Below, one piece after another: positions 7,953-61,400 of a stretch of DNA of 64,000 nt; the stretch's first letter is position 1; every line of letters begins with the position of its first letter. The notes beneath the pieces were generated by a model. That model ran no database searches, was not told the DNA's origin, and saw nothing but the letters and a program-made list of their open reading frames with translations. Source of the DNA: Enoplolaimus lenunculus (taxonomy: Eukaryota); contig JASANG010003984.1 in the NCBI GenBank assembly GCA_030248215.1, positions 62,001-126,000 of the forward strand, given 5' to 3'. The position numbers and the translations under genes are program-made.

Positions 7953-8260
7953 TCAACCGACATACATCCGTTTCATATCCAACCGACATACATCCGTTTC
8001 ATCTTTAACCGACATACATCCGTTTATCCAACCGACATACATCCGTTTCATATCCAACCGACATACATCCGTTTCATCTTTAACCGACATACATCCGCTT
8101 CATATGCAACCGACATACATCCGTTTCATCTTTAACCGACATACATCCGCTTCATATGCAACCGACATACATCCGTTTCATCTTTAACCGACACATCCGT
8201 TTCATATGCAACCGACATACATCCGTTTCATCTTTAACCGACATACATCCGTTTCATATC
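7953..8260. repeat. 26-bp tandem array (aaccgacatacatccgtttcatcttt / ...atatcc)
   Basis: About 12 units with two alternating variants. Confidence 0.9.
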
Positions 8261-23320: not shown

Positions 23321-24395
23321 AACTTGCAAGTATTTACTGTGCACTTGAAAACGCACATACATTACCGGTTGTACGAAGCCGGGCCGGAACCAATAGTATA
23401 ATCGCACCGGAAAACTAAAAAAGTGGCCGGATGTAGAAATTTCTAAACGGGGGCAGCGCGAGGTATAACAGCGAAAACGAACTCACGAAACAACCGAGCG
23501 AGTAGCCGAACGTCATTTTAATCCTAAATCTTAATACAAAATCTTCATTTTGACCCCTTGCTGGAAGGCTTAGGCCGGACAAGCCGGTACCATCCTTTGG
23601 ATCCGCCAGAGACCTTAGATGAGCACGGGTGCATATACAAGAGCATAGGGTTCCGGCTAAAAATCTACATCCAGCGCATGGATATGCATACTAGGAGGGC
23701 TAGCAGCATATATTCACTCGAAATTTCGGGTCAAAAAACGCAATTTTACAGGCTGTAGATTAACCTAAAGAGGCCAAAAATCATCCCGTTCACTACGCAC
23801 GACGGCGAAACCAAATTATCTCGCCCCGAAACGAATTCCTGGAAAATTTCATTAGTAGCCAACTTATTTTGCATCATCTTCATCGTTGACTCAGGCATCG
23901 GTAAGTTTGGTCGACTTCCGGCTCCGGTAAGTTTGGTCGACTTCCGGTTCCGGTTGTTCTGACGACCCGTTGCATCAAGCACGTGGGAACAGGGCCGAGC
24001 GTTCTCCGGTAGGGCTGTAATTTTTTGCTTGTTTTAGGTAAAGCTAATCCTCAGGATTGCGTTCCTACTTGACGTCCGGCGCCGTCCGTCACACACCCGT
24101 ATGGCAGCGTCAGTCTCCCGTACATCACCGTCCGAACCATACACTATCGTACGTGAGTTATTTGCGTACGATACCGCACGGTGACGGACGGCGCTGGACG
24201 GATGACGGACGGCACCGGACGTCAACAAAAATATAGCGCAACCCTTACGCTTAGGCTTCTGCAAAGGAATATGCTTACACTACTGTTACGGCCCTGTTCT
24301 ATAAACATTCTGGCCCACGGAAAGATCAGGGGCGGAACATTTTCATGTGGGACTGCTATAGAGCAAGCTTAAGCTTTAGACTAATTTTTTGCTGG

Positions 24396-24527
24396 GCTTA
24401 GGCTTAGATTTAGGCTTAGGAATATGCTCATTCTTACGCTTAGGCTTAGGAATATGCTCATTCTTACGCTTAGGCTTAGGCTTAGGCTTAGGAATATGCT
24501 CATTCTTACGCTTAGGTTTAGGCTTAG
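24396..24527. repeat. TTAGGC-containing repeat with ~30-bp periodicity
   Basis: gcttaggcttagg runs; related motifs near 5170, 25660, 55575, 56748 and 63120. Confidence 0.7.
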
Positions 24528-39700: not shown

Positions 39701-42700
39701 ACCACCACTGAAGTACAGAGCACAAGAACTAGCCAGCCTAGCCTTTGAGAAATCACTCAGACTACCCTCTGGAAACCCCCGGCGCCAAATCGTTGACCCA
39801 GAAAACAGAGTACCCAAAAGAACATCCAAAGTACAATGGCGGGACGAAGCCAAACGCCTTGCAGAAAACACTGGGCTACAAGGATTTCGAAGAGAGGAAC
39901 TAAAACCATTCCAACACCCCCCGTGGCTGAAATGGAAGACAACCACCTTCAACGAGGAACTCGCGACAACAGTGACTAAAGACATGCCACCAGAAAAGTG
40001 TAAACAAGCAGCAGAAAGTACTTTATCAAGTCTGCCGAAGCCCGCTCTCCAGTACTGGACCGACGGTTCCGCTGAAGGCGGAATCAGCAATGGTGGTAGT
40101 GGAATTCTGGAAATCAGTGCAAATGGAAACACCAGAGAACGATCGGTAGCGGCTGGACGTATTGCGAGCAGTACCAAAGCAGAAATTGTTGCCATATATG
40201 AAGCACTCAAAATGGTACAGAACAAAGTAGACAACAACGATATAAAGTATGACGAGGTCTGCTGGATCTGCTGTGATTCAAGATCTGCCATACAAAAGCT
40301 CAAGAAAGGACCTCATCTGCAAACCGACATCATCTGCAACAGGATGTGGAAAGAAATTTCACGCCATACCGAACAAAACGGTATAAAGTTCATATTCCAA
40401 TGGGTTCCTGCCCATTGTGACCTCCAACGCAATGAAAACGCAGACACGCTCGCGAAAAATGGTAGCGCCAAACACCAACAAGACGTACCGATCGACATAA
40501 GCTCTGCAAAATCTGTGATCAAGAAAAGATTCGCCAAGAAATGGGAACATGAACGAAAGCCAACCTTTGATATTGCGAAATTCGTGCCGGCTAAGCTGGA
40601 AAGTGGTCTCACGCAACACGCAAAACGAACACTTGCCCAAATGAGAACTGGAGGCAAATCCTTCTACCTTGCCAGCTTCAAGCATGCCGTGAATCCCAAT
40701 GAACCACCGCACTGCAAAAGATGCTTTAACAGTGACGAAACCATCGAACACGTGATGAAAGAATGCCATATTCTTCACCAGCGCAGAGAAGATCTGCTCA
40801 ACAAAGATGACCCGATGAAAACATTGTACGATGACCCAAAGAAAGCGTATACATTCCTGTGCAGGGCCGGAGTTATCTCCGACCGCATGTGACCTCATGG
40901 TCTCCAACCTTGAAATGAAGAAGAGAAGAAGAAAACGGACATCCACCTTTCGACTCCCAAGCACAAAATATAAAACGGTTCGCGATATTCCAAGCTTTGC
41001 GCGGAGTTCCGCTTCGCTCAATAATTGGCAGAATGCCATCTACACCAGGCGCTTTAAAACGCCCAGGTTTCAATGCTCCACCTAACCAAGTTAGGTGTAA
41101 CTACTTCATTAATTATTATACAATTATCCGCAGCGTTCATTCTAGGTATATAAATACTTACAGATATTAGTCTTGTTTACATTCTCACACTTAAAAAGTG
41201 TAACGCACTCAAACGATTATTGGCACATGTAATATGCTGAGTAGCGCGTAGTTAACTGATTTTTAAGCGTTGCAACTTTTATGCTAACAAGTCAGTAGCT
41301 ATCTAATCATTTACCCGTTTTGGAACTTTATAAACAATTTATTCAGTACCCACGCACCAAGAACCCATCATTACTGAAATACATCCCTTGTAACCCTAAA
41401 AATACATCCCTTGTAACCCTAATAAATAATTAGTGAAATACCGTAAAAAGTCTAAATTAAGCTTATATAACAAAATAAGCTAATAATGTAAAGCTGTACC
41501 GAATAAACGGCTCCGAATTTTAAAATCCCAATGCGAGGTTAATACCCCAGGATCATACGCTTTGAAACAAAAATCTTCATCAAAATCTGTTAGGGCGGTT
41601 CCTTAGATTCTCGCCGGTCAGACAGACGAGCGGACGACATTTACTTTCTACCCCCAAGTACAAAACACGCATCGCGAGACTCCCTGAGCTTCACTTAGTC
41701 TCGCTTGGCGCAGCAAAAGCGCAGAACTAAACACTACTTCATTTTTAAAAATTATATGTACAAATGACGTGAAAATATATCGAGTATGTTTATAAGTAGA
41801 CATTGGGTAAAGTGTCTTCAAAATGCTGTACGCTATTTTATATCTAATAGCAATCGGTGTTTGCAACAGGTTTTTGGTGGTTTAAACATAAAACATGACG
41901 GTCTGCCGACATCAACCATGCGCACAGCAACTCTTCAAAAATTCAAATATTTACCACTTGTGGCAGCATATAAGTGTTTGAACTCCTTTAAACATGACTT
42001 TTTAAACATACGTCTAGATCCACCTGCACTGGACTCCAGAGCCACGCCACAAGCGTTTGTAGTTGCTGATTCAATCGAAGGCCATTCCTCTTCATCGTCG
42101 TTTACAATCTGCAGCGCAAAAATGCATACTTGCAGATATAACAGTTTTCTAGTGGAGTCAGGTGCAGTCCAAAGTAACGTCTGCCGAATTTTATTCATGA
42201 CCATGCTTCACATACAAGAACGCCAACTGCTGGCCCATACTGTTGCACTTTCGTTTGTTGTGCGTGGCAATGTTGCAATAATAATATAAAATATACGGTA
42301 GTGTCGACTTATCGGCATTGGAAATAATCAGCACTTTTCGCACATAACAGTAAGTTGGAATGCTCTCTCGTTAGTGTTTGAAAAAATACGTAGTTAATAT
42401 GAACTGTTCCCATAAGATTATAATATGCTATGGTTGGTTTGGGTTTAAGTTTTCGCATTTATAATGATCTAATATTGTATCCTAACTGTTCTTTAAGCAT
42501 ATGTATTAAAATTATAATCGGAATTGGCTTTGGCAGCGCTATCAACATCTGTATGGGCGTATTTTCCAAATAACAGGCCAAATTTTCGTATGGGTACATA
42601 CCTAATATAATACTGAGTAAAGAGCAAACAATCGTGCTCGTATTTTAGTTGAACACTGCGACCAACGATCTGTATATTTAAGACATAAGCATACTAGATA

Positions 42701-43101: not shown

Positions 43102-44427
43102 ACTGTCAGAATACAAATCCTATTTATGTATGACCTAAAATTACGGGTTAGTACGTATTTGAACTATTAAAACAAAGAGTTGAAAAAAGAAGTTCCATGT
43201 TTTGGAAAACGTGAATAATTTAGTTTCATATCACACGAGAAACTCAAGCATAAGTAAAGTTATGGCTAACAGTTATCGCTTGACACAGCAAAATAACAAT
43301 AACTGTTGGTAATGAAAACTTGCATTTGTTTTAAGAACTTTTCTGAGATTTTTGCCAATGCTTTATACAACTTTGTTCACAATTCATCTGGCTATGTATT
43401 TTACACTATACCACTACTAATATACAAAATAATCATACAATAACAAAAACAACAACAATAATATAATATTAATATTACGGTGATTTATTGATATTAAGAT
43501 TTCCTTTTTGAGATAAGAAGAATGAGACAGATTAAAATCTCACTTAAGAGTTACATACTCAATATACTGCCTACTTTAAATGCCGGCAATACATATCCGC
43601 GTATGCTGATATTCTTTTTTCATTTGACGTCCTCAATGTGTGACAGTACGAAATCGCAAATCTCGATCCCATTCTTACAGTGATGCTTATATATAAATCA
43701 CCAGCTCATATATTTTGAGAGCTAAGGATGACCCTGTGGTATCTGTATTACCAAAAACAAAACGTTCTTGCATATTCCATTTAAACAAATAGTATTACAA
43801 CACATTAGCCTTGCTAAACAATCAATATTTCCAAAATTCAGTATACTATTCTTTGTTGACTTAAAATGCTGCTGTATCAGCTTAAGGTTCGTGGCTGTGA
43901 GTGTTCATCGACTTGGAAACTTATCACTAAAATGAGGATAATACAAAGGTTCGCGCATTTTTTGTTGTGTAATGGTATAGCTAGTCCGCAAACTTTTACT
44001 GCGAGATTACTTCATTGCAATGTAATGGTTAAAGTAAACGAAAGGTTATTGCTTTAGTTATCCATAGTTAACGGATGATCGGGGTGGGGCTGCAACCCAC
44101 TCGGTTGATTCGGTACATTCCGCCATATTTAACTTGGCCACTCGAAAAATCCCCCCGGTTTGAGATTATATATACGTATAAAAACGAAAAGCCAAATAAA
44201 CAAGCTAGCGTCACATCTAAGCTTAGACATAGCAAAAGCCCGGTCGGCTCGAGATTGATGTGCACATGCAATATAGTGCATTGCATTGTATGCATGCTTT
44301 CTGGTAGCATACGGTCCCACTCGTTAGACCCTCACTGATAATAACAAATTCCTGCTATTTTAATCTAGTTTTCAATTTCTGATAATCTTTTGTAGATAAT
44401 TCATGTTTTCATGTTTATGCACGCGCT

Positions 44428-44939
44428 TGTCGGAATATGTGCACGTAAGTGTGTGTAAAGCAAATGTTGCCATGCCTGTGCACATATACCGGTATAAGAA
44501 GTTGTTGCAATGGCCGCGTCGTGTAGTGGTAGCATACTTGGCTCGAGAGCAAGAGGGCCGAGGTGCGATTCCCGGCGTGGTCATTAACTTTGGCAAAACT
44601 TCAAACACGGGTCGTGCAGACCGTATAGTACCAACATGGAGGTCCCACCGAGATGGGCACTGCAAACAGCAAGCCCATGAATTCGGGTAGTTGGATTCGC
44701 GGTCCGGGACGACCGCCTGTAATAAGAGGGATGTCGGTATATGTGCACGTAAGTGTGTGTAAAGCAAATGTTGCCATGCCTGTGCCCATATACCGGTATA
44801 AGAAGTTGTTGGAATGACCGCGTAGTGTAGTGGTAGCACGCTTGGCTCGAGAGCAAGAGGGCCGAGGTTCGATTCCCGGTGTGGTCATTAACATTGGCAA
44901 AACTTCAAACAGGGGTCGTGCAGACCGTTAGTACCAACA
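44428..44939 (+). mobile_element. TRIM (miniature LTR retrotransposon) with tRNA-like sequence in both LTRs, copy 1
   Basis: LTRs 44428-44636 and 44732-44939 (TG...CA); PBS tggaggtcccaccgagat at 44637-44654; purine tract aataagaggga; TSD gcgct on both sides. Confidence 0.92.
44816..44887 (+). ncRNA. tRNA-like Pol III cassette in a TRIM LTR (also 44512-44583, 60774-60845, 61079-61150)
   Basis: 72 nt; acceptor stem gaccgcg/(c/t)gtggtc+a, A-box tagtgtagtggta, B-box ggttcgattcc; imperfect anticodon and T stems, so probably not a functional tRNA. Confidence 0.75.
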
Positions 44940-44959
44940 GCGCTGAGATAATTTGAATA

Positions 44960-47900
44960 ATGGCTAACAACAAACTCGATTTATCGAAATACAATCGCTT
45001 TCACATATATACATGCAACATAATTGCATGGAAGGAGTTACATCAACATCAAATTTCGAACCCGTCGACAGAACTTCGGCGATGCTTAAAGTTGCTTTTG
45101 AAAAGCGCTGCGCTTAGCGAATCAAAAGCGGAAACGTGTATCAAACCGTCAGATACCGTCGGCCTATGCTTGTGTAATCGTTCTTCACAACAACCGGGTA
45201 CGCTTAATGGAATGAATCGAAGTGATCTTAAGATTACTGTAAAGGTGCGTAGCGTGCTTTCTAATTGCGTTTTTCTATATATACAAGTAAACACATTGTT
45301 AGCAAATGGTATGCCTGCATCACGCGGATATAGTCTCTAATGTGATGCTCTAGTACATATGTACCTATACCTCTCAACAATTGCCGTAATTGTTCAGTTT
45401 TCAAATGAAATAACAAAGTTATTCCGAAATATTTAGAAGTCTGGGAGCTTACGCCAAATTAATGCATATGCTATTTTGTACGTGTATTTCGTTGTATCTT
45501 GTATGAGTAGTGTCAAATAAGTTGGGATTTATTGATAAGTTTTATAGGACGTGGCGCTGCCGGTTTCCCGATAAGCAATCTTTTGGAACTGGCCAGTTGA
45601 AGGCAAAAACTACAATGAAAGTAGACATGAAATTCGTTGCCAAAATTCACAGGCGAAATTAGTAAATTTGTACGGAAAGAAATCACTCGGAGGCAGGGCT
45701 CAGATATTACACCATCTGCTAAAATGCTAAGATTCATTGAGTTAAGTAACACACTAGCTTGGTGTTAACTCCCAAATCACGATCATCGTCGTTACCTAAA
45801 CAAGGCGGAATACAGAAACACCACCTAAACAAGGCGGGATACAGCAACGCCATAAAGACATGCAATGATTATAAAGTATGAAACAAGATAATAAAATTCA
45901 AATATACTAATTAATAAAACCGGCGACAAGAATACAAAGCGTACGCCAGGCACTAACATTAAACCCACGTAAGTAAGCGTACTATGCAATAAAAAAGTGA
46001 ATACAGGCTCTTGTGTTATTGCAGATTTAGTAAAACTCATCGTGCTACCGGATTCGGATAGCATACTATATTAAAATAATATATATTAAGTCCGTCAACA
46101 ATTCTATATTGGCTGTAATTTTTCTGAAAACTGAATTTTATGCTTGCAGTTTCAGAGTAAGCATGGTGGTACATGCCCCTTCAGATGAACATTAATGAAA
46201 TTCTTCAATCCATGAATAAAAATTAGCTAGTTTACGAGAAGATTGCTACTGAAATTTTCGTCTAGTTTCTCCCTCGCGAGCCTTTTCTCTTGATTTTATT
46301 TCAGTTACATTCTGGGTTATATATTGATATATATTGAAGCTCGGATGTGGGCGGTTCCTTTTCCTCTTCATTAGAAAAACTCAGTATTTAAAACAACAAC
46401 TTGTATGAACTTTATGTATCTACCACCGTATTCGTATATATTGTTTTGTAATAGAAAACATGGCCTGACGGGGGTGCGACGCGATTTAAAAATGACGTAA
46501 CTGTAGTTTTAGTGCTGAAAATCTGTTACCAAAGAATACCGTCGTTGGATTTTTATTTTCATTCGGAGCCGAATGTTTTTTAGTTGCACACCGATAAGCA
46601 TTTCGTCGACATTTTTATACTTTTTGATTTTTTTAGCTGACTTGCACTTGCAAGCTGTATACGTGCATATAACACTGCACAACATCCGATTGCTTTTATT
46701 TCTTTAAAATGTTTACGTGTCATCATACATATGCTTAAAATATATTAATATCAGTATATAATACAATACTTAAAATTTGCTGAGATAAGCAGTTACGTAC
46801 GTACGCACTTATTTCTATATAGTTAGATGAATTATATATATATATGTTGTAGGCCAATCTGCTATTTAGGCCAATTAGTAATTGGCCTAGGCCAATCTGC
46901 TATTTTATGTAATAGCAGTGTGGCCTGGGCTAAACTGCTATTGAACTTATGGACCAATCAGTTTTGTTTATTCGGATAAACGCAACCTTTAACCAATCAA
47001 CGATGGTATTACATCACTGATTTGCGACATCTCACAATCGATATTTGGCCTAGGCCAAACTGTTATTTGCTTCCAATAGCAGGTTGGCCTAGGTTGGTAA
47101 TTGGCCTGAATAGCAGAATGGTCTACGACATATAGGCGTGTGTGTAGTTGGCATGGTCAGTAATGCTTCAAATCAAATACTATCTAATTTTCTGAGCAAA
47201 GTTTTCGACAAGGTTTGGCAATGGTAAATTTAAACCGGTATTCTCTGAAACAACTTGAACTCCTCGAGCAAGTATACTAACTAAGTAGTTGCTGCATAAA
47301 ACTAGAAACTTAGACCGTTGTTTCGATATTGCCGGTTCAGCTCTATGTTTGCGAAGGATACGTATGTATAATTATGTATAATTTGATTGTAAAGCGCTCT
47401 TTTGACTATATAAAAGTGGGCAAGAACCGCATTGAAAATAGCAAAACTTTGTTGACGTAGTAATACGCATAAAATCGGATCGTATGTACCATTGTTTTAT
47501 TCTTTTGAAATTGCAGAGTTTCATTTTCAAATGTATATTTATACATATTTATTTCAAACAAATGTGATGTACGAAAGTGTCATTTTGTAGATGTGTTTTG
47601 TTTCAGTTGTTCCTGCAAGAATGGAATGCCGACTTGGTGCGTTGCGGTGTTGAATACATTCTTAAAGTGCTCGATACCGATCATATCGAGTCGTTAATTG
47701 TAGCATTCCCACCGTCTGAGTATGCATCTGACGTGCAATTGGACGATGATGTCACCGGTGATGACGTTGAAAATGACGCAATTTCCGCTGATGAAGCCGA
47801 ACACGATGATAATGAGGATGACTTTATTCAAAACGATGACAACGACGACAATCAAGATGAATATCCGAGTGCGGAACAAATTCAACAAATATGGCAGTCA

Positions 47901-48968
47901 ATTGAAGCTGTAATTGATGATGGGAAAGTAGTCACTGGAGGTAATGTTATTGGTCTTGTTTTGTATGTTATGGGGCGTTACGTAGGTTTGCGAAAGATTT
48001 TATGTCTACTTCCAGGGTGGCAAGGAATCCAGATGTGACGGGGTTTGAATTCGTTGCTAATTCGCCGAATCCAAGGCTTGCATTTTACAGCTTTCCGATA
48101 TATCAATGATTTTGCTTCAGAATGAATACCAACACAACGCTAGCCGCATAACTTTTAAAGTTCTGTAATTTGTGACCTGAGGCAAAAAATATTGATTTAT
48201 ATAACAAGTTATTTAAAAATTTTATTGCATAAAAAATTAAACGTACGTATTATGTTGCCGAACATTGGTGGATTCGGCTTATTCACATCCCAATCCGACC
48301 CGTTAATTTTAGCGGAATCAGAAGCTTTGTTGCCATCCTGAATGTGTTATACATAAGTTTTACACTGATTTTGGATTTCGGAGGTATATGCATAATTTTA
48401 TTATATTGGTGTATTAAAGGTTTCGGTCGAAACTTTTTCCAAATTTCTGACTTGTGTGCACGAAGTGTGAAGCTGAAAATTTTATGCAGCCCGATATTTA
48501 GGCTTTGACTAAAAATCTGATTCGCGGCTGGCTTTTTATTCTCTGGGATTTTTCACATTATTGTAATTATTTTTATGTAAGCGACAGTAGTATTTTGTTT
48601 TTGTTGTATATTTTGCAGGCGTTGCCGACTTAAATATTACTCAATTGAGAGCGTTGCATAGTTCGGCGCGAATTAAACCAAGCATAAATCATTACAATAT
48701 CGCAGCGTGTTGCACAGTACCACCAGAACTTCAAGAATTTGCGAAAACAAACAATATTCAGTTGTTGACGCACAACGATCCGGCACAATTTCTAGCACCG
48801 GAGACCGTTTTTCAGCTGCTTCATGATGAACTTGGCCTTGTGGAGTCGGAAGCTCGTCAATGGAAATCTAAAATGGTGTTACGGGTAGCGGTCATGGCAA
48901 AACAGCGCGCTGTGATTACAACGAAAGCTTATGCTGTGTGTTTGGCGAAGCATGGGGATGGAGATTGA
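44960..48968 (+). CDS. GCLM: Glutamate-cysteine ligase modifier subunit (~322 aa, 3 exons)
   Basis: Exons 44960-45244, 47607-47940, 48619-48968, GT-AG and in phase. Motifs: HIYTCNIIAW..STELRRCL, KITVKLFL, ESLIVAFPP, GVADL, KPSINHYNIAACCTVPPELQEFAK..IQLLTHNDP. Confidence 0.9.
46846..47130. mobile_element. MITE of the 17456-17737 family, in GCLM intron 1
   Basis: TIR tgttgtaggccaatctgct/agcagaatggtctacgaca flanked by tata. Confidence 0.7.
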
Positions 48969-48989
48969 GATTAATGAGAATGTAGCCAG

Positions 48990-49371
48990 ATGGGTGCAAC
49001 CGAAATTGCAGTTCCGGTTTTTTACCTTCCGGTTCCGTTTTCGGTAAAGTTTAACCTGAATTAAAAAAACCAGTATTAAATTTTGGTCGGTGAAATTAAG
49101 ATATTTTACTAAAAATGACGATAAAAGTTAAATAGATTTCATTAGTATAGTAAGTAAACCTTGACAATCGCCGAAAATAAACAAGGTAGATTCCGCTTCC
49201 GTGGATTATGACAATCTAAAATACAGTGGATAAAGTGAATACCTGTCTCCAACTAGGGTTATTTTACCAATAATATTGCAAAAAACAAAATTAAAATGAA
49301 TTTTTGATGACATGTATTTTTCATTTTTTCAAATTTCGGTTCCGTTAAATTGTAATTCCGGTTGCACTCTG
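48990..49371. mobile_element. hAT-like MITE just downstream of the GCLM stop codon
   Basis: 8-bp TSD gtagccag; reverse-complement match to 10934-11328. Confidence 0.85.
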
Positions 49372-50807
49372 GTAGCCAGATACAGAGTCAAAATAACGAA
49401 ACCGACAGTGAAGAAAATAGCATAAGCGCAAAATACCTGGAATTATCTTTTCACAAAGTTTCAGTGTGTTTCACTGTTTTGAGTTAGTTTTTATTTTTTG
49501 ACTTGCATCTTAGTAAGCAGGGAGTTGTATTCTCAGGTAGCATTGTATTAAATTTTTTGATGTTCTCGACGTTGTATATTTTTATGTTCAGTTTCAAACT
49601 CGTTTAGATTAATCTGCTATGGTTTGAAAACATATCAATTAGTATGATGTTAACATACATTGGTGCCTGACCGTGTGTAATTATTTATTTTTCGTGGTTT
49701 AATAAACATATTTACGTTAAATGTTTTCCTTTATGTACTTAATATTGTCTGTTTCAGTACAAAATCTTTTCTCGGAAAGTATATTTATCTAGAAAATAAT
49801 TTATCCAATTAGAGAAGTTTGTTTTGTAGTTCAATTTTAGTTCCGTTCCTCAACCTAGTGTCGGTTGCAGGGCTAATCTAGCGTATGACAACGAGAAAGA
49901 GATCAATGACATAAATATATACTAAATTGTCGGTAATCTGTTCAAACTCTAAAACGACATGCGAGTGTAAATACGTCGTCGTTTGCCGTACTTTGTACGA
50001 AAGGTTTTTTATAATGCAGTTGTGAAGATGACCTGGACTAACTAGCCAATATATTATTGAAGTTCATTAAAGCTGGTGTTGGTTTTGTAATTGTATAGTC
50101 TGAGCGTTTGGGTACCCTGAACGTGGTAATAGAAGTGGAAATCAAACTCAGCTCGCTGAATGACACAGCTTTCATAAAAGAAAAAAATCACTATCAAAAT
50201 TGGCGAAGCCTTCGACAGATATTCTGCAGGTGCAGGAGGGCGGGGTAGTGTGCCGTACGCGAACCTCCGAGGGCGTATTAAACGGATAGTTGGCATTTCT
50301 TGCAAAATCCACTTTACTACAAATTTATCATAGTATAAAACTGTGCGCAGAATCTATAAGCCGCACTATCATTTTTTACGATAGGTGTAAATGCATTAAT
50401 ACCAGGATGCAACCGGAGGTGAACGGAGCCGGAGGACAACGAAACACGCCGGAGCCGGAAGTGAGGCGAAATTAGGTAGTAAAATGAGGGTTTAGTTAAT
50501 TTTAGCAAATATCTGCAAACACTTAAAAAAATGGTGAGTCAAATTGATTCTCCGAAATAGAAACCAAAATGCCTCAAAGTTGAAAAACGGATTTTCTTAA
50601 AGCCTCTACGACCTAAGCCAGTTTCTAACCTCTGCCCATGGGAAATATCATCCCTGTTCGCGAAACAAACTGCCAAACGACTGCGCCAACCCAGGCCCGC
50701 AGCGTTAGCACCTTGTTACGGGGGCTAAAAAATTTTCAGGAGGCGCATTCAAGGATTTTCCGTGAGTTAATACAAGCAAGGTTGAAAATTTATTTCGTAA
50801 TTTTATA

Positions 50808-51171
50808 CCATGGTACAACTGGAGGTCTGCCTCCGGCTTCGGCAGAAAATCGGCCTCCGGCTCCGGTAAAATTTTTGCCGGAGGTTCCGGCAATTTCGGT
50901 AGTAAAATTTTGCATAATTTTGTAAAATTTATCTGTTTGAACGCGTTATGTTTTACTTTTGTCACAATTTTCAGGAAAGAATTTCCGAAAATTCGCAGAA
51001 AATTAGCGTAAAACCAAACAAATTAACAACATATTACAGATATTGGCTAAAATTAACTAGTTAACCAGCATCGTTACTACCAAATTTTGTCTCTACTCCG
51101 GTTCCGACTCTGGTTCCGGCAAGTTTCGTTGACCTCCGGCTCCGGTATTTTTCACCTCCGGTTGCACCATG
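50808..51171 (-). mobile_element. hAT-like MITE, short form of 20538-22093
   Basis: catggtacaac...gttgcaccatg termini; only one or two satellite-like monomers inside. Confidence 0.7.
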
Positions 51172-52245
51172 ATATATACGTGAGACATAAGTTTTAGCGT
51201 GAAAATAAACTGAATACCGGTATTTCTATGACTGAAACGAAAAAGGATATATGGTTACATCCAGCCTCCGGTTGTATTATACTGTGGAGAACAATTCTCT
51301 AGGGTTTTGGGGTCCGAAAAAAACGGTTTGTTCACTCTGAAATCAACGTTTGACATTTAATATGTATTTAAAAAGTTTAGTAAACCTGACCTAAACAATA
51401 AAATGTTTCACGTTTTTGAACGTTTCAGTGCTTATGGATATTGTGTGTGGCATATCGAACGTTATTGCGGCACCACGCATTCAAACATAAAAAAACAGCA
51501 GTACTATTTGTGCGCAAAGGAAGTGTCTGATAATATATTGCAGTTTTTACTAAACATAATTGCATAATTGTAATTGGTAATATACTGATATCTGCGAACG
51601 GAGTTCTTGAACTCTAAAGGTACTTTTGATATGCTTCTAGAGCACCGAGTACGGAGCTTGTTGGAGGTAATAAAATCTACAAGCGAACACCCTGCAATTG
51701 GACAGAAACATTTTTTCTGCTTAAGTTAATCCGTTAGCTAGTGGAACCTGTGTATGTACGGGTACGCGTTTTATACGGGTTAGTTACTGTAAAGAGATGA
51801 ATTGCCACAATTTTGACGGTGTGTCCAGCAAAAGTTGTTGTTAACGATTCATATGCATTAGAATCGGAAGGAATACTGTGCGAGAATATGCTACAGCGTC
51901 AGTGGTTTTATACAGAACGAATTTACGATCAAGTCAGTGAGACATCCATTCCAACGTTGTTCTTGTGGTTCTCAGTTTCTTTAGCATATAAAAGATTCAT
52001 CGATATAAATTTTTTTCACATGTGTGTACAAAACTATGAGATTGCTTTCAGATTTTGATAACCAAACCCATGATTAAGTAACTGTGCTTACGTATTTATT
52101 TTTGCAGACAATACGTCATATATTGTGCAATGCACCATCGAGCTTTGATGACATGATTACTTCATATGTTTAATATGGGCTTAATGCCCACCGCCGATTT
52201 TTTGCGCAATTCAGAAGCAAAGCTTATTTCACTTCACAATTCCTA

Positions 52246-53124
52246 ATGTCAGTAGTTCATTCAACATCCAGATTTAAGTCGTTGCTAGTCAAACTTAAAC
52301 CAACGAAAAGAATCGATTGGGTAAACTTTGTCAGTCGTTTGAGTAAGTATAGATCTGGTCCGTTTGTGTAGCCAAATTGTGCCGACGTGGTATCTATTTC
52401 CAGATTTTGAACATATATGGCTGTATTGTTTATACCGTAGTTTTAGCGCAACAAAAGTATGCAAATTATTGTTATTACAGGCATAAGTTAAATTTACGTT
52501 TCTAACTCATTGTGTTGGCTCTATCGTGTACATAGCAAATGATTATAAAGCCGTCCAAAATGTACGCATTCATTGCGTTTCATTTTTACTAAAATTAATT
52601 ACACTATATTCGTCTGTTCCTTGCGCCTTAAACTAAAACAATACAAAAGCATTTGCTATATTTCAGCTTTCGCAGTGCTTGGGTTGGTGCTGCCGCCGTT
52701 TATATTCCAAGACGATGATCCAGATGAAGTGCACGATTACGATTACGATAAACCAAAAGTTCGAAAAATGATCACGTCAATCGAACAGTCATTAGAAACG
52801 CGGTTGGATGATGTGTTACGTCGATTGGAACGAGAAAACGCTGAAAGACGCTTAATCAACGAGCGCCGGTTGGCGAAACATTTAAACGCTGAAGAATTTA
52901 GTCGTGTACGCGGAGAAATTCAAAAACGTTTCGAGTCACTTGATGATCGGCTGCATTCCAGTGCAGCGCGGACTGCTGATGCAATTGATGAAAACGCAGC
53001 TGCGATACAAAAATTGCAACAACATTTAGCACGCAATGAGCAAGTGATGATTGAACAGGATAAACAGATTAAGTTGCTTGAACGGATTTTGCTCAAGAGA
53101 TCTGGGGTTTTTGATGATAAATGA
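52246..53124 (+). CDS. Putative ~184-aa protein with one hydrophobic segment and a C-terminal coiled coil; family not recognised
   Basis: Exon 52246-52342 (ATG, gtaagt donor) joins in phase to 52667-53124 (tttcag acceptor); heptad-like E/R/L/Q-rich sequence. Confidence 0.55.
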
Positions 53125-55842
53125 ATAATGATGGTATATGCTCTCTGTTTTGAGTTCCAATTGGTGGAACAGTAGTGCTACAATGGTATGAGAAGGATCT
53201 ACATAACAGTTAACGATAGCTGTATAATGATGATTTTGGTTTCGTGTGAAACCGTGTTTGATTTAAACTTATGCGTCCCTCGGGATAAATTTTCCCAGGT
53301 TATCGAGTGGCAAATTTTAATATTCTCAAGCGTCAATCCTACCTTAACATAACATTGAAAACAGACATACTATGATGTGTCAAATAGAAACGCGAGTTAG
53401 CGTAACGTTATATCGGTTTTCATTATTTAGACAATGTTGACGAATGGAAATTTTGAAATTTTACTTTACTTACAGCAACCATAATATGTCGTTTCTAGTG
53501 CCTGGCTGGGAGAGGTTATTATGAATTCGCGTTATCATTATACTAGTCAATTCGACCTTTGTGTTAAGTCTGTGGCGATGTCTCGTGCAACTGGACGGCA
53601 AGCTCTGAAAAAGTGGCCTACACACAAAATAAATTGTCTTATATCCACGAACTATTGTCTGAACTTCATGACTATTATGTCTTAATACAGACTTCAGACA
53701 TATATGTGTTGAATTCCAGGACTTATATTTGTTAAATTTTTCAGAAATATGGGTCGGAAAATTTTCAAACTGAAATTTAAGACTTTGTTTCCTGAATGAC
53801 TAATGTCCCATTTACACGTGCAAGTTTTTGCAGCGAGAACTTGCAGCTGCACCTTGCACGAAATATTTGCAGCTGCAAGTATTTTCAAAGGAAGATTCCG
53901 ATCGACCAATCAAACTGCAGGCGCAAGAAATTCAAGCGACTTGCAACTGCAATCACAGGTGCAAATAACATTATGTAGCATGAACTACAGTGAATAATCT
54001 GTGGGGTTGCATGGGACATGCTGTCCCATGTTGATTCCACATCAACTACAGAATTGGTCAACCATATATAAGGTCAGCAGAACAACTGAATTTCATACCA
54101 CAATGATGTACAAATCCCTGTTGTCATGTCAACTACACATACATGTGTGCTAGTGTCATATGATATAAGAGGACGTTATAGTGAATATCATATGATATTC
54201 CCAATTTAGTACGAATATATGACATTCAACTGACAGCTGCATAACAACATATGACTCTGCGGACAATGATAACTGTCGCAAGTTCTTTGCTGGACTACTA
54301 GGCGAGATCTGAATACTCAAAACGACGCACTAAATTTTATGCAGAATATGTCAGGCGTTTGAACTAAAGCTCAAATACTAAAGGTTTTTTACACCCGCCT
54401 TTTGAGTCCGCCTGCGAATTTCATACGATGCTAGCATTCCTGTCTGTCAATATCATATGACATTCGGCATACACAATACCTAGATATGTAATACATACAC
54501 GGACACCTGTCAAATTGTAATACGGGGTCGACAGACAACAGGGAGAATGCCATGTGACATCGACATAGTACAACGTTGTGATTCGGTTATGGTACATATT
54601 AGCAGACAAGTGCGGTTTTTGGAATGTGATATAGGGTGACTAACCAGACAAAATGCTACTCAATGTTTTGATAGGGACAAATCGTGTCACTCGCTTCCCA
54701 AGTTTTAACGCGAACCCCGCATCAATTGTGGTTGCACTTTGTTTAAAATTTCGTGTACATTTAACTGTATTAAATAAACGACTGTAAATCTGTAAATAAT
54801 CCGAGTAACTAATCGATGTTTGCTCCTGAACACAAATTTGAAAAGACGCGAATTCGAATTTAAGCGTTACACGACTGGATCTCGAGGTTTCGACAATCAA
54901 TGCAATGTTCAGGATATCTGCAAACTATGATTTCTTGTATATTCTTCCGTTTTCAGTTGTTGCATACTACCAGGCTTTCGGACTACGTACTTTCGTAACA
55001 CAAATATTATGTTCAAGTCAATTTCTGTTGTGGAACACCATAAGTATCAGGGTGCAAACGATAATCTAATATCCGGCTGAGCCTGATAATTCAAATCTAA
55101 TGCTAGATTGCTTTCAAATATCAGAACGTGGCTAACATGTTTCCTTCAGTGGCCGGAGGCATCCGAAGTGTTTACGTGACAAAGTTTAACATTTCACACT
55201 GATTCATAGGCTTAGCCTTATGAATTGGAATATGCTGATTGCTGAGAGGTTACGCCCAATAAAACTGGTGAGCCTCATGATACTATAGATTGGGTCCTGA
55301 AGATTTGGACCAATATTACTTTTAGCAATATAAAACAGACAAAACATGTGGCTAAGTTTAAGTTTCCTCAGCATAAACACAAGTCTAAAACAAAGCTTAA
55401 GCCTAAAGCCGAAGCAAAACAATGAGTCTATAAACTATTAAACTATAATAAGCCTGCTCAATTGCGGTCTAGTGAGAAAGCGGGCGGTAGCGAATTCGAA
55501 CCATGTATAGAATGGCCGGATAGATTTCCGGAGGGGCTATAATAGAATCAGTTTAAGCTTTAGACTATTTTTTTGCTTAAGCTTAGGAATAGGCTCATCC
55601 ATACGCTTAGGGTTAGGAATTCGTTTACTACTATTCCGGTCGTTCTATACATGGGCCGCGAATCCAAGCGGGGGTGTATGGGCGTGCTACCCCCAGCAGT
55701 AATATTTTTGGGATAAAATGGTAAATGTCCCTACCTTACAATTTTGTCCCTCGTAATGTTTTTGTGATAAAATTATATGGTCCCGTCCTTGCAATTTCCC
55801 CCTCAGAAAGTTTTGTGGTAAAAAATGAATAGGTCCCTTCTA

Positions 55843-56036
55843 CACTGTAAAAAATGGTGAGTCAAATGGACTCTCCGAAATAGGCTTTTCCGGACTACAC
55901 AAACGAAGTCAAAATTCGACTCCGCAAGAATCAAATTCAACTCAATGAATCGCTCAGTGAGTCCAATATGACTCAGTTTGTGGACTCCGGAAAAGCCTAT
56001 TTCGGAGAGTGATTTGACTCACAATTTTTTGCCGTG
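55843..56036. mobile_element. Palindromic CACTG-terminal MITE
   Basis: Long TIRs flanked by TA; same family as 62064-62262 and 63635-63822. Confidence 0.75.
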
Positions 56037-57688
56037 TATCTTGCATACTTCCCAAGAAAATTTTTTGGTGAACAATTGCGTTTCAAAAGATTCACCTGCT
56101 CGCCCACCGTCAGAAATTTCTGGATTCGCCGCTGAAAGCGGGGCACGACTCAAAAGTAGCATGGGTTTATTAATCAGTAGCAATCTTGCAATCCGAATTG
56201 TATGTTTTACGCTCTTAACAATTAGCTTGTGGGACATGGTACTTCCTTTAGAGCAACAAGCTAAAACAAGTGCCCAAGAAACGAAAATTGAGGTTGGGAA
56301 ATAAAAAAACGCGAAATCGACTTTTGAAGATCCGAAATAGAAAAGTTAATTTCGGATATCCGGCAACAATTGCCGGATTGGAAAAAATCCGATTCCCATA
56401 ACTAAAGAACATACTGTTTTGTAGCTACATACGTCTTGTGCACCTCTGGTATTGGTTATATTGAATAATCTATACTAATATTGAAGCAGGTTATACAAGT
56501 TCCTCGAGGACTTTTCTGGTTCATATGTAAAAGATTTTGTGAACAGCCCAGCACATCACACACGCAGATGTTTTAATTATACATTTGCTTCATTCACATT
56601 AATATATTGGCATAAAAAATAATTGTCAAAATTACGAAGAACCGTAATTTTAGTTAAACGAAAATTCCTGGCCCATGCAATATAGATGTGTGGCGGACCG
56701 TTTTTGCGCGAGACGGATATGCAGTAAAAGCTTTAGACTATTTTTTACTTAGGCTTAGGTATAGGTCTAGTCTTATCCTTACCCTGGCCCATGTAGATCA
56801 CGGGCGGAACGTATTTCTTCTGGATTAGAAAAGAGTAAGCTTACACTTTAGACTAATTTTTTATTTCTAGCCAAACAAGTTTAAGTTTCGCAGAAAACCG
56901 CTCGTTTCTCAGCCCCACGCGCAAAATTTCATTTGCTACTAAAGATAATGCGTTATCAAATGGAATCACTGTCGCAGACAACAACTAAACTATCTAATTT
57001 CGCGTCCTCTCCAATATGTCTTGTTGATCTCTGGCTCAGGTTTCAGTTTTGGTACTTTTCACCTCCGGTTGCACCCTGCACTGTCATATCAACTAAATAA
57101 TGTCAATAACCGTGAGTTGTGAATAAATTCTGCCACCCAGTGCATCGTCATTATTATCGCAGCACTATTTCCTAACGACAATCGGAACAGCATCGTTAAG
57201 AGAAATTTCACGTATCCCAAGTTCCGCAACGTCTATTTCAATCGACTGACTGTAGCCACTAGAATGCTGACGAGTGGGGTGCAAGTCCAACCACAAACTG
57301 GACAGCGTTTTTGCGCTTTCTGCCTTTGCTATGTGCGTGTGTATGTAGTACATTTAAATGCAAAAATATGTGATTTAGATACCATACTTTGATAAACATT
57401 TTATGCACAACGTTGAAACTGGTGTAAATTATGTTTAATAATCAGAAATTGTACATTTTGTGTTTGTTTTGCAAGGGGTTTGGGAAAAGTAGGAAGAGGT
57501 CAATTAGGGGAAGGGGTCGGAGTGAGGGGAGCTAGAAGGTACGTGGCAGCTCCACCTTCTCGGTAAGAAAACCGCAGAAACCGTACCGTATCTGTTATCT
57601 ACAAAATGGAACAGAGTATTACAAAATACTGGAGCAGGATGATGTCCATTTTTTGTTAAAGTTGGTTTTTGATTGAACCAGATGTCTA

Positions 57689-59219
57689 CTACAATGTCTG
57701 TGGTAGCAATTGGTCTGCCCTCAATTGAGTTTGGGCAATATCGGCCAAGGCGTCTTGGACACGTGAAAGCAATCGCTCACCGTCACGCACTGATTCTTCC
57801 AGTTTTCGTGCCGCATCTTGGTTTCGGGTTTCAAGTAGCTCTAGACCACTTGTCTGTAAAAATTACAATGATGATAAATATCTGATATGTTTATGGCAAC
57901 ATAAGTGCTGTCTCTCAATTTTATTGCAATAAATGCAACTATGTAAGAAAAACTTCATTACAATCAATTTTGAAGATCCGTTAGTTATATCACTGTACTC
58001 GAACCTGAATGATTGGATAATGTATAATTTTAAATTCGTGTAACTCTAAAACTCGCGTATTAAACGTAATCAGCTTTGATACAAATTTACGTACAAAGAC
58101 AATGATTAGTGATCAGCTTTTCTCTACATTACTATATGGACTTGTAACAGATTATATTGCTTAAAAAGCATTTAATAAGAAACCTTCGAAACTACCTGAA
58201 GCTCTTTTGAAGATTCTTCACTAGGTAAAGAATCTATTAAAATATCAATATCTTTTGCAGTTCGTGCGATTAATTGCGCAAAGAGTTGTGCGTTTTCTGT
58301 AACGAATGACTGTAATTCTAAATATACCCTGAAAGGAGAGGTGTCCCGAGTTCTGGCCTCGGCTCCGCGGCCATACGGTACATGGAAAACCCGAGAAAGA
58401 AGCAAATCCTCCACAGCAGAAATAAATATACCTACTACGAGATGTTGTTTGTATAGATTCTAATTCGCCTGCAAGTGATTGTACCACTTCACTCAGTCGA
58501 GGATTTAGCTTGAAATGCCAGCACGAGTAACACAAATATAAGCTCCCTGTAAAATTTGCCTAGGTCCATACAAATACGTTATAAATACGTGTATATGTGT
58601 TTACATGCGATCGTATGTACCTGAGAGAAACTAACTCATTGTTGATAAACGATTATGCCAATTTCAACAAAGTAAAAAATGATAGAGTATTTAATTCTGA
58701 TGGTTTTACTTGAATGACTAATACAAATATACGGTTCCTTGGCAAGCGGGTGAAGTGTAATATGTAATGTAAACACGTACCTTCCTTTTGAATCGCCTCA
58801 ATTCCCGAATTTTTGTTGAAGCCAAACGGTGGTGCTGTTTGCTGCAAAACCCCAATGCTATTACACATATGATTTGCAAGCTAAAATAAAATAAAGAACA
58901 AACTGAACTCTATCAGCAAAATCAAACAGCAATAGACATTGTTATAATGTCGCCTATAGACTTCTAGCTGACCATTCCTTAAAAAACGATAAAATGTGCA
59001 GTGCTGTTTTGTAAGAAGCAAGCAGGCTAATTTACGCGGTGTCACACAAGGGGTCACAATCTCTGATCTCTGGCATTAAACTTTTCCGTTTTAAAAACTA
59101 GGTACCTAAAAATTGATTTTTCATCACGAGGTCATTATAATTTATTAATTCAAGCATTCGAAAATAAAGGGACTAACCTCATTTACACAGTCTTGAAGTT
59201 GTGACAAACGGTCACACAT
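57689..59219 (-). CDS. MED21: Mediator of RNA polymerase II transcription subunit 21 (Srb7), ~135 aa, 4 exons
   Basis: Exons 59219-59178 ([14 protein letters not shown]), 58880-58781 ([18 protein letters not shown]), 58296-58196 ([28 protein letters not shown]), 57853-57689 ([13 protein letters not shown]); GT-AG and in phase. Confidence 0.93.
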
Positions 59220-60344
59220 AACTTCAATAATGAGTTCACATTTTTTGAGTAAATAACATAGAAAGCTAAAATAAGATAAAGAAGCACCATCGTAACGAAT
59301 CACTAACGACGGGTAACTTTAAACTAACCCATGCTGGTAGCCTCTTTGCTACATATAGATAGCAATCATTTGTTGAAAGGAAGTGTTGCTTTAATATACT
59401 GCATCAAAATTTAGATTGTTCAAAACTGTTATGAAAAGTTTTGCGTTCTGCACGAAGATTTTCTTCCTATTTCCTGTCTATTAAACCGCGCTGAGTGCTG
59501 TAGTCCAAAGCTAGCCTTCTTCGCTCAACATCTATGACTTTTCGGCCTCTCCACTATCTCTAACTATACTCCTACATTAATCCAGCAAAATTACTTTTCT
59601 GTTTGTGTATCAAATTTATTTAGCTAAGTGATTAAAAAGCCCAGTTAATAAAACACGAAAAAGGTTCGCCACAGGGAATGAATGATGTAACCGGATAGCT
59701 ACTTGCCTGGTTTAAAGCTTTAGATTTCCTGGTTAATATTTGCACCTTTACTTTTACCGGCGACAATAATAAAACATCATTGAAACTTTTACTTCAACAT
59801 TCCTTTCCCGTTTCCATTATTCTGATCATTGCACATTTCTGTTCATGTGTATTATCCGTTTACACCCTGGTATGCGGGTTAACAAGGAAAATTTTTTGAT
59901 AGATTGGCAGCCGCTGGAGGTGTGAACTGTCTCGTTTTAATTTTACCCCTGTCCTCCAAAAGCTATAATTAGTGCATACTTCTAGTCGCCGCAGATTGTT
60001 TAGAAAAATTAAAGTGTCTGTTGAAAACCTCTGATTAAAAGTGAAAAGTGCAAAATTTATATAAATTCTTGACTTAAGTTGGAATTCGTCTTTAAATCAT
60101 GTTTCTCCAACCGGATCCTTAAACTTGCAAACCCAAAAACTTTCCCAATTGACTTGTTTTTAGAAAAGTCTGTACTTTCTTGTAGAATCTTAATAGCTGG
60201 TCGCGGACATAATAGAGTTTCGCGTAGACTCTATCAGGACAAGACTGTTTTGCAGTATCCCTGTCTGGACATTGAAATGTTTGACTACCAATGTAGTGCA
60301 CAATATTTTTATGTCACAGACACACCAGGGACACCGCTTAAACA

Positions 60345-61400
60345 AATTTTAGCGTGAAATTAAAACTTTGGCGGGAAAATCAAATTTTGGCAAGAAAATA
60401 AAAATTTTGGCCACAAATTTTATCTCTTCGCGGGAAATTCATTTTTGGCATAAAAATTTAAAGTTTTGACTTGAAGTTCAAATTTGGCCGGAACATTAAA
60501 ATTTTTGCTGCAAATTTAACTTCTGTTAGAAAAATATAAATTTTGGCGAGAAATTTATATTTTGGCGGGAATTTCTAATTTTTGCAGGGTAAATCCAAAT
60601 TTCGAAAGGAAAATTTAAATTATGACAGGAAATTGAAATTTCGACGGGAAAATTATTAGTTCTTGGCCAGAAATTCGGTTTTTTGAGGGTGACGGTATAT
60701 GTGCACGTAAGTGTGTGTAAAGAAAATGTTGCCATGCCTGTGCACATATACCGGTATAAGAAGTTGTTGCAACGACCGCGTAGTGTAGTGGTAGCATGCT
60801 TGGCTCGAGCGCAAGAGGGCCGAGGTTCGATTCCCGGCGTGGTCATTAACTTTGGGCAAAACTTCAAACAGGGGTCGTGCAGACCGTTAGTACCAACATG
60901 GAGGTCCCACCGAGACGGGCACTGCAAACAGCAAGCCCATGAATTCGGGTAGTTGGATTCGCGGTCCGGGACGATCGCCTGTAAAAACGAGGGATGTCGG
61001 TATATGTGCACGTAAGTGTGTGTAAAGCAAATGTTGCCATGCCTGTGCACATATACCGGTATAAGAAGTTGTTGCAACGACCGCGTAGTGTAGTGGTAGC
61101 ATGCTTGGCTCGAGCGCAAGAGGGCCGAGGTTCGATTTCCGGCGTGGTCATTAACTTTGGGCAAAACTTCAAACAGGGGTCGTGCAGACCGTTAGTACCA
61201 ACAGAGGGAAATTCAAATTTTGGCGGTAAAATTCACATGTTTGCAAAAAAATCAAATTTTGGGGACAAAATTCTAATTTTGATAGGGAAATTCAAATTTC
61301 GGCGGGAAAATTTAAATTTTGAGGGAAAATTCAGTTTTTGGCCGGAAATTTAAATTTCGGCGGCAAAATTTAAATTTTGGCGTGAAAATCAATTGTTTCG
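60345..61400. repeat. Degenerate ~21-bp AT-rich tandem repeat (aaaattcaaattttggcggg-like) interrupted by TRIM copy 2
   Basis: Units on both sides of 60690-61203. Confidence 0.75.
60690..61203 (+). mobile_element. TRIM with tRNA-like sequence in both LTRs, copy 2
   Basis: LTRs 60690-60898 and 60995-61203 (209 bp, TG...CA); PBS tggaggtcccaccgaga at 60899; purine tract aaaaacgaggga; TSD gaggg on both sides. Confidence 0.93.

Follow-up and report, generated by a model that had tools for sequence, protein, structure and literature searches.

Two short repeats in the window, the whole 64-kb stretch of DNA analysed here, raise the question of how an element without genes and with a tRNA-like sequence in each of its long terminal repeats (LTRs) is transcribed, and which other element moves it. 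On balance, we consider it probable that they are copies of a gene-less, Helenus-kind mini LTR retrotransposon, likely transcribed by Pol III and likely mobilized by a Gln-primed Ty3/Gypsy element resident in the same genome, which is probably that of a nematode. The Helenus class itself is already published (Kojima 2024, PMC10886601), and the novelty concerns the lineage, the host, the primer and the target-site duplication (TSD).

Structure and distribution of the elements

Each of the two copies, E1 (44428-44939, 512 bp) and E2 (60690-61203, 514 bp), is built as an LTR, an internal region and a second LTR, with the following features (positions in the window):

44423..44427, + strand: E1 left TSD, 5 bp (flank comparison)
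44428..44636, + strand: E1 5' LTR, 209 nt, TG...CA; 7 private changes, one of them in the B box
44512..44583, + strand: tRNA-like unit of the E1 5' LTR; anticodon CGA, without a long variable arm (Rfam, 42.6 bits)
44637..44654, + strand: E1 primer-binding site (PBS), complement of the tRNA-Gln 3' end; zero spacer from the LTR
44637..44731, + strand: E1 internal region, 95 nt; the short purine tract at its end adjoins the 3' LTR
44732..44939, + strand: E1 3' LTR, 208 nt; 94.3% identity to the E1 5' LTR
44816..44887, + strand: tRNA-like unit of the E1 3' LTR (ARAGORN/Rfam, 51.1 bits)
44940..44944, + strand: E1 right TSD (flank comparison)
60685..60689, + strand: E2 left TSD, 5 bp; within a 19/20-bp satellite
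60690..60898, + strand: E2 5' LTR, 209 nt; an 84-nt upstream part (long hairpin), the tRNA-like unit (85-156) and a 53-nt tail
60774..60845, + strand: tRNA-like unit of the E2 5' LTR; putative Pol III start, with no damage to the A- and B-box motifs (ARAGORN/Rfam, 50.2 bits)
60899..60916, + strand: E2 PBS, tRNA-Gln, 17/18
60899..60994, + strand: E2 internal region, 96 nt, purine tract at its end
60995..61203, + strand: E2 3' LTR, 209 nt; 98.6% identity to the E2 5' LTR
60997..61060, + strand: predicted long hairpin in the U3-like upstream LTR part (z = -4.2 against 100 shuffles; 14-bp inverted repeat)
61079..61150, + strand: tRNA-like unit of the E2 3' LTR (ARAGORN/Rfam, 44.5 bits)
61204..61208, + strand: E2 right TSD (flank comparison)

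When the sequence was re-measured, the coordinates, lengths, TG...CA ends and 5-bp TSDs agreed with the first-pass annotation, and its reading of the structure as a miniature LTR retrotransposon (TRIM) was confirmed by the LTRs, PBS, purine tract and TSDs. Both copies are shorter than 1000 bp and have two direct LTRs with TG...CA termini, as defines a TRIM. The TSDs of E1 and E2 differ from each other and each is exact at 5 bp. In these two copies, the only ones from which TSD length is read, the flanks match at 5 bp alone, while 3, 4, 6, 7 and 8 bp fail in both, and the probability of a chance match per TSD 5-mer is about 4e-4 given the window composition. The absence of coding capacity also held, with an interior of 95/96 nt and no Pfam family in the seven reading frames of at least 82 aa that overlap E1 or E2. 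No ribozyme family of Rfam was detected in either element, and the long hairpin of the upstream LTR part was predicted in all four LTRs.

The proposal of two independent insertions was borne out by unrelated flanks, different TSDs and LTRs that cluster by element. Grouped by element, the LTR pairs share three diagnostic sites, and each of the two alternative groupings shares none, as expected from separate reverse-transcription events. The family is multicopy, with many insertions. Public contigs were drawn from three runs of one study, among which the source sample may itself be included, and 873-2421 contigs per run map on the element. In each listed row, between 17 and 34 contigs leave the element precisely at an LTR end, with a flank agreement of only 0.38-0.42.

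The tRNA-like unit in the LTRs

The tRNA-like sequence noted earlier in every LTR was recovered in all four by the Rfam tRNA model RF00005, matched over model positions 1-71 with scores of 42.6-51.1 bits (gathering score 29). The unit is 72 nt long and begins at LTR position 85. The claim of A and B boxes in every LTR needs a small correction. Box B (GGTTC) is intact in three of the four LTRs and in the family majority, but mutated in the E1 5' LTR, at a position where the intact T accounts for 89,472 of 89,722 in summed depth (X1). Box A (TRGCY...YGG) fits partly, with YGG in four of the four LTRs, TRG in three, and TG in place of CY. The cloverleaf stems are kept in all four LTRs, with the exception of one G-G pair. 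It is likely that the embedded tRNA serves as a promoter and neither decodes nor primes. At its 3' end it is similar to the end of a bee tRNA-Trp in Fig. S2 of PMC10886601, a weak hint at the parent tRNA.

Two readings would set this picture aside. One of them holds that the repeats are not an LTR element, but a SINE dimer or local duplication with chance flank matches, or that E1 and E2 are a single segmental duplication. Each repeat does carry a SINE-like tRNA-like head, E2 lies in a satellite, and the purine tract ends with letters similar to the left TSD of E2. However, E1 and E2 depart from SINE2 elements in that the tRNA unit begins 85 nt inside the repeat, an A-rich or simple-repeat tail is lacking, and the TSD is exactly 5 bp in both. 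Moreover, the PBS and purine tract lie exactly at the LTR borders, the LTRs group by element between unrelated flanks, and the contigs lose their match abruptly at either LTR end. We regard this reading as largely refuted and very improbable. The other would make the unit a working tRNA-Ser(CGA) gene that the element has amplified, given that ARAGORN called tRNA-Ser(cga) in three of the four LTRs and that the stems are mostly intact. Seryl-tRNA synthetase requires a long variable arm, which is missing here; the G-G mismatch closes the anticodon stem, the T stem is bulged, and no T4 terminator stands behind the unit. Kojima judges most Helenus tRNAs to be non-functional from disagreement of isotype (PMC10886601). 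A decoding gene is, of all the readings considered, the one to which we give the least credence. The two false tRNA-Ser(CGA) calls that each element adds would inflate the tRNA annotation of this genome.

Relationship to Helenus, Ajax and Cassandra

A TRIM counts as Helenus when its LTRs contain tRNA-derived sequence, and the E1/E2 family fits this definition. The likeness to Helenus (TRIMp3; Kojima 2024, PMC10886601) extends to a length below 1 kb, a tRNA-like unit with A and B boxes in each LTR, a PBS and a purine tract, the lack of an ORF, disagreement between anticodon and tRNA body, and the lack of self-priming. The comparison with Helenus made in the first-pass annotation, including the 4-bp TSD of animal members, was correct with respect to the families listed in PMC10886601, where the TSD is 4 bp in 113 of 115 animal families and undetermined in 2. 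The primers reported for animal Helenus in the same list are Lys, Leu, Trp, Arg, His, Ile, Pro, Glu and Ser. In contrast, E1 and E2 have 5-bp TSDs, a tRNA-Gln primer and a host that is probably a nematode, a group that does not appear in that list. The nematode assignment of the host is drawn from indirect markers; homology searches with its exons yielded no relatives with a score. A word search of the Helenus supplement of PMC10886601 found neither the PBS nor any of five diagnostic LTR words; such a search is not an alignment, and line-wrapped words could escape it. Judged by TSD, primer, host and this search, the family appears to match no described animal Helenus lineage. The suggestion of an undescribed lineage is upheld for the family as compared with the listed animal Helenus, but not for the class, which had been published. 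Helenus from nematodes did not turn up in the literature covered, which takes in neither Repbase and Dfam nor most subscription papers and bioRxiv supplements, where the family may be listed.

As in Ajax and Cassandra (PMC10886601), a Pol III-type promoter, here a predicted one, is located in the LTR of a TRIM, and Ajax is, like E1 and E2, an animal element with 5-bp TSDs. Unlike E1 and E2, which carry a tRNA, both have LTRs derived from 5S rRNA, for which Rfam gave no match in the LTRs of our elements. Ajax is primed by tRNA-Leu and found in nemerteans, whereas Cassandra is found in plants, where the 5S unit in its 5' LTR is reported to drive transcription (PMC10886601).

With these findings, the range of tRNA-bearing TRIMs likely comes to include another animal phylum, and the published 4-bp TSD rule for animal Helenus is broken. 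The departure to 5 bp suggests that the helper integrase is a different one and speaks for several independent origins.

Primer-binding site and candidate helper elements

The 18-mer at the start of the internal region had been read as the complement of the tRNA-Gln 3' end. This is exact in E1 (18/18), while E2 has C at position 18 (17/18). Two exact copies of the 16-nt PBS core are present in the window, with one more match at 33293 that has 3 mismatches, and shuffled sequences gave 0.11 PBS-core matches on average. The PBS 12-mer is typed as Gln in the tables of PMC13524379, and at one metagenome locus (L057) the same 18-mer extends into sequence complementary to a tRNA arm that has a TTG anticodon loop. 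Self-priming by the end of the LTR tRNA was rejected, as its pairing with the PBS reaches about -12 kcal/mol, compared with -38.9 for a perfect complement.

Scanning for the LTR-PBS junction gave 0 matches in viral contigs and 71 loci in metagenome contigs. ACA directly precedes the PBS in 54 of these 71 loci, most of them supplied by one assembly. The 71 loci showed no likeness to E1 or E2 beyond the PBS, no tRNA was found in the 54 scanned, and none of the 73 ORFs downstream of the PBS matches had an RT, integrase or gag match in Pfam.

By analogy of the PBS, the best helper candidate would be a Gln-primed nematode Ty3/Gypsy, which gives the family a concrete candidate partner. A Gln primer had already been recognized, although the precedent invoked for it, murine endogenous retroviruses, is less relevant than the nematode Ty3/Gypsy elements tabulated in PMC13524379. 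In that table, which comprises envelope-carrying Gypsy only, without BEL and Copia, 8 of the 36 nematode elements are Gln-typed, all the Gln-typed Gypsy rows being from Caenorhabditis; 4 of the 8 carry an identical 12-nt primer end at most 1 nt from the LTR end. Elsewhere in the 1512-element sheet there are only 2 further Gln-typed rows, both mismatched. The Gln-typed GAG-ENV-POL Ty3/Gypsy elements resemble E1 and E2 by their tRNA-Gln PBS, placed at the LTR edge in those 4, and they differ in being autonomous, about 11-13 kb in length and mostly equipped with longer LTRs (tables of PMC13524379). A 5-bp TSD is recorded for Gypsy elements in 7 of 8 Mag-lineage rows considered from Table 1 of PMC3286476.

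No autonomous partner was found in the 64-kb window by PBS search. One metagenome locus (L003) has a 3.1-kb element with a variant of the Gln PBS directly adjoining the LTR and a purine tract of similar kind, but no clean TSD was found there. The look-alikes of its ORF lean to Retrotrans_gag, with DUF1759 (BEL-type gag) lower, which constitutes a lead only; among 1.8 billion representatives, this gag-like ORF matched only itself and 2 weak, repeat-like sequences.

Proposed transcription and mobilization

We propose that Pol III would start at the tRNA-like unit of the 5' LTR (LTR position 85) and, because TTTT is absent from the sense strand of E1 and E2, would read through into the 3' LTR, yielding an RNA of about 430-445 nt. 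This RNA would be packaged by the Gag of the helper, reverse transcription would be primed by the host tRNA-Gln, strand transfer might proceed via the tRNA-plus-tail segment present in both LTRs, and the target would be cut by the helper integrase with a stagger of 5 bp. Selection against T4 terminators was considered and found to be unsupported, since 1280 of 2000 shuffled sequences were likewise free of TTTT and its absence is not significant. Among the sequencing runs listed with the element none is an RNA run, which says nothing either way on expression. Pol III transcription has been demonstrated for no Helenus (PMC10886601), and this abundant family, one copy of which is young and nearly intact, offers a good system for testing it.

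Alternatively, the element could be a conventional Pol II TRIM, in which a SINE or tRNA fragment in the LTR is passively inherited and plays no part in transcription. A TATAA motif at LTR position 66, about 19 nt ahead of the tRNA unit, is compatible with this, although it could serve either polymerase. On the other hand, a sequence scan found no AATAAA in either element, the B box and the cloverleaf stems are kept as described above, and the element size falls inside the Helenus range of 311-1263 bp (PMC10886601), so that we hold a Pol II origin of the transcript to be improbable. The same TRIM may instead be mobilized by BEL/Pao, or Copia, rather than Gypsy. BEL/Pao elements typically make 5-bp TSDs. 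The fungal Helenus that depend on Copia have TSDs of this length as well (PMC10886601); nematodes possess BEL elements such as Tas and Cer7-Cer12, as listed in PMC554778; and DUF1759 also occurs, further down, in the look-alike list of the L003 ORF. Nevertheless, the nematode elements found with the same PBS, in the tables of PMC13524379, are Ty3/Gypsy only, and the text of PMC10886601 describes PBS similarity between animal Helenus and Gypsy, though its Fig. S2 places one BEL element beside the Lys primer. A BEL/Pao or Copia helper is unlikely in our view, yet it is the alternative that deserves most attention, and Gln-primed Ty3/Gypsy is the helper that we favour.

A possible donor of the tRNA head

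In the public contigs, 9-16 per row match the tRNA unit only, with an A-rich sequence upstream and a 3' exit into a conserved body of their own; no second family sharing the tRNA head was found in the 64-kb window. It is conceivable, though unlikely, that E1 and E2 represent an independent, nematode-born Pol III lineage dependent on a Gln-primed, possibly envelope-carrying Gypsy, with a SINE-like donor of the tRNA head in the same genome. If true, such a donor-recipient pair would be a direct test of the proposal that Helenus arose when a SINE inserted into an LTR. In the head-only contigs, the acceptor stem apparently has two changes that together preserve one base pair, provided that both ends belong to the same molecules.

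Two insertions of a Helenus-type TRIM

The family to which E1 and E2 belong is a real, abundant and recently mobile TRIM of the Helenus type. Two miniature LTR retrotransposons had been proposed in the first-pass annotation, and their coordinates, segment lengths, TG...CA termini and target-site duplications (TSDs) of 5 bp were all reproduced.

44428-44939: E1, LTR 209 / internal 95 / LTR 208
60690-61203: E2, LTR 209 / internal 96 / LTR 209

The elements share 95% identity, and both have TG...CA termini. Each is bounded by an exact 5-bp TSD, with no match at other lengths within 3-8 bp, and the chance of each 5-mer match is about 4e-4. That this structure is a Helenus-type TRIM is hardly open to doubt. 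E2 interrupts a 19/20-bp satellite (60343-60651 and 61209-61389). A BLAST search of the window recovered neither a solo LTR nor a copy besides E1 and E2.

Since reverse transcription leaves both LTRs of a new insertion with the same sequence, grouping of LTRs by element is the expected pattern, whereas duplication of one element would produce the opposite grouping. Three positions separate the two LTRs of E1 from the two of E2, no position joins the 5' LTRs, or crossed pairs, across the two elements, and the remaining differences are private to single LTRs (7, 5, 2 and 1). Together with the unrelated flanks, this upholds the earlier claim of independent insertions. The LTRs of E1 are 94.3% identical to each other and those of E2 98.6%, and E2 is the younger copy.

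Two copies per 64 kb suggest an abundant family. The E1/E2 region is present in three public DNA runs, which come from one study and at most two samples, possibly including the source. Contigs on a 771-nt E1 stretch number 2421, 873 and 1435, and the summed depth of the element, which is not a copy number, exceeds that of the flanks by three to four orders of magnitude. At the borders of the LTRs, loose contig ends accumulate (run X1: 33, 31 and 17 contigs; run X3: 34 and 33), and their consensus agreement there is only 0.38-0.42; the ends are thus sharp and the flanks many and different.

The tRNA-like unit and putative Pol III transcription

The whole Rfam tRNA model is matched in all four LTRs, at LTR positions 85-156. 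The unit carries a CGA anticodon, and because it lacks a long variable arm, closes its anticodon stem with G-G and has a bulged T stem, it is, judged on its sequence, unlikely to be a decoding tRNA. Box B is intact in three of the four LTRs and in the majority sequence of the family. The sense strands of E1 and E2 contain neither TTTT nor AATAAA, and the absence of TTTT makes Pol III read-through from the 5' tRNA unit into the 3' LTR possible; since 1280 of 2000 shuffles likewise lack TTTT, its absence is no sign of selection and counts only as permissive. The predicted transcript would begin at the 5' tRNA unit and end with the 3' LTR, 430 nt in all, or 445 nt if continued to the first T4 past E2. 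The 84 nt upstream of the tRNA unit form a long predicted hairpin (z -4.2), which would occur once per RNA, directly 3' of the purine tract; a packaging role would be a guess. A further predicted pairing joins the LTR tail (60855-60898) to the last part of the internal region (60952-60990) and encloses the primer-binding site (PBS), with energies of -38.3 kcal/mol in E2 and -33.3 in E1, values without a shuffle control.

Some contigs (9-16 per row) match only the tRNA unit, at 44816-44888, with loose ends at 44832, 44879 and 44888. These short loose ends exit 3' into a different conserved body and have A-rich sequence upstream. They could represent a second repeat family sharing only the tRNA head, whether a SINE donor of the kind proposed by Kojima (PMC10886601), a sister TRIM or a family of tRNA genes; no such family was found within the window.

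Comparison with described TRIMs

Helenus is defined by tRNA-derived sequence in the LTRs of TRIMs (PMC10886601), as in E1 and E2. The hosts listed there span six animal phyla, nematodes not among them; the screen took its seeds from Repbase and was then extended to related genomes, so the missing nematodes are not a tested negative. The host of E1 and E2 is an animal, as marked by a let-7-family hairpin with an intact seed, probably a host microRNA gene, and a Med21 exon. It is probably a nematode, as TTAGGC-type arrays indicate, TTAGGC being described in published abstracts as the telomere motif of nematodes; protein searches did not place the host.

6660-6739, minus strand: let-7-family microRNA hairpin (Rfam 38.3 bits, E 3.5e-4, below the gathering score of 53.5)
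58175-58459, minus strand: Med21 exon (best PDB matches Mediator subunit 21 chains, E ~1e-10)
24395-24527 and 55563-55629: degenerate TTAGGC-type arrays within a dispersed repeat

Animal Helenus TSDs were given earlier as 4 bp, and Table S1 of PMC10886601 bears this out (113 of 115 families, 2 undetermined), in contrast to the 5 bp of E1 and E2. Gln, the type of the PBS in E1 and E2, is absent from the Helenus primers of that study, and a word search of its supplement did not find their PBS or five of their LTR words. Ajax, a known animal Pol III-type TRIM, shares the 5-bp TSDs but carries 5S sequence. Helenus is merely cited in the available part of PMC13570524, and the available passages of PMC13195028 on strongylid LTR elements describe no such element. 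The family therefore lies outside every described animal Helenus lineage, as had been suspected; what is new is the way in which host, primer and TSD are combined, the Helenus kind itself being already known.

Primer and candidate helper

The PBS adjoins the 5' LTR with zero spacer. Its assignment to tRNA-Gln holds on two grounds: its 18-mer recurs at metagenome locus L057, where it runs on into sequence complementary to a tRNA arm that has TTG in its anticodon loop, and an identical 12-mer lies at most 1 nt from the LTR end in four nematode elements typed Gln in the supplementary table of PMC13524379. Self-priming, an idea that appears in the text of PMC10886601, was also considered. The tRNA end of the LTR is not complementary to the PBS, and self-priming is therefore rejected.

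Pol III transcription combined with a Gypsy helper, an autonomous element supplying the enzymes, is on balance the reading we favour, if by a modest degree. A real rival is a helper from BEL/Pao, whose TSDs are also typically 5 bp. The available part of PMC554778 gives no BEL/Pao TSD or primer figures. A Gypsy helper is compatible with 5 bp too, since seven of eight Mag-lineage Gypsy rows accessible in PMC3286476 have TSDs of this length. Of the 36 envelope-carrying Ty3/Gypsy elements that the PMC13524379 table lists for nematodes, 8 are typed as Gln, every one of them from Caenorhabditis; for many of the other nematode rows no PBS is called, and outside nematodes just two rows have the Gln type. 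The summary sheet of the table counts 19 Gln elements and 10 rows were located, figures that disagree.

A scan of metagenome contigs for the LTR-PBS junction returned 71 loci, none akin to E1/E2 outside the PBS, and no pol domains occur in the 73 ORFs from these loci. One locus (L003, 4795-7883; also L011) is a 3.1-kb gag-only LTR element on an unrelated contig, with identical ~385-nt LTRs and, with no spacer, a variant of the Gln PBS; its ORF has no Pfam match, its atlas look-alikes lean to Retrotrans_gag, and the element has no clean TSD. In one metagenome assembly, dozens of short repeats (L001, L006, L023, L037, L046, L050 and others) terminate in ACA with the Gln PBS immediately after it; in some of them direct repeats of 50-90 nt flank interiors of 22-60 nt. 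These may be very small or tandem TRIMs that lack tRNA units.

Other features of the window

36876-40892, plus strand: near-intact LINE (885-aa frame encoding a PHD finger, an APE endonuclease and an RT)
47568-48968, plus strand: exons of a candidate gene for the modifier subunit of glutamate-cysteine ligase (a lead, with an atlas score of 0.88)
541-1729, 7953-8259 and 20568-21808: three unrelated tandem arrays, each of 26-bp period
5408-57079: family D12, a short TTCCGG-rich motif in eleven spaced copies

Beyond a single stop, the LINE reads on in a 452-aa frame that encodes RNase H. The first exon seen of the ligase gene, whose exons probably encode the modifier subunit, lies about 2.6 kb downstream of E1. 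Over the initial 24 kb the D12 motif recurs at ~2-kb spacing, accompanied by inverted pairs related to it, and it possibly marks the termini of a MITE or Helitron family.
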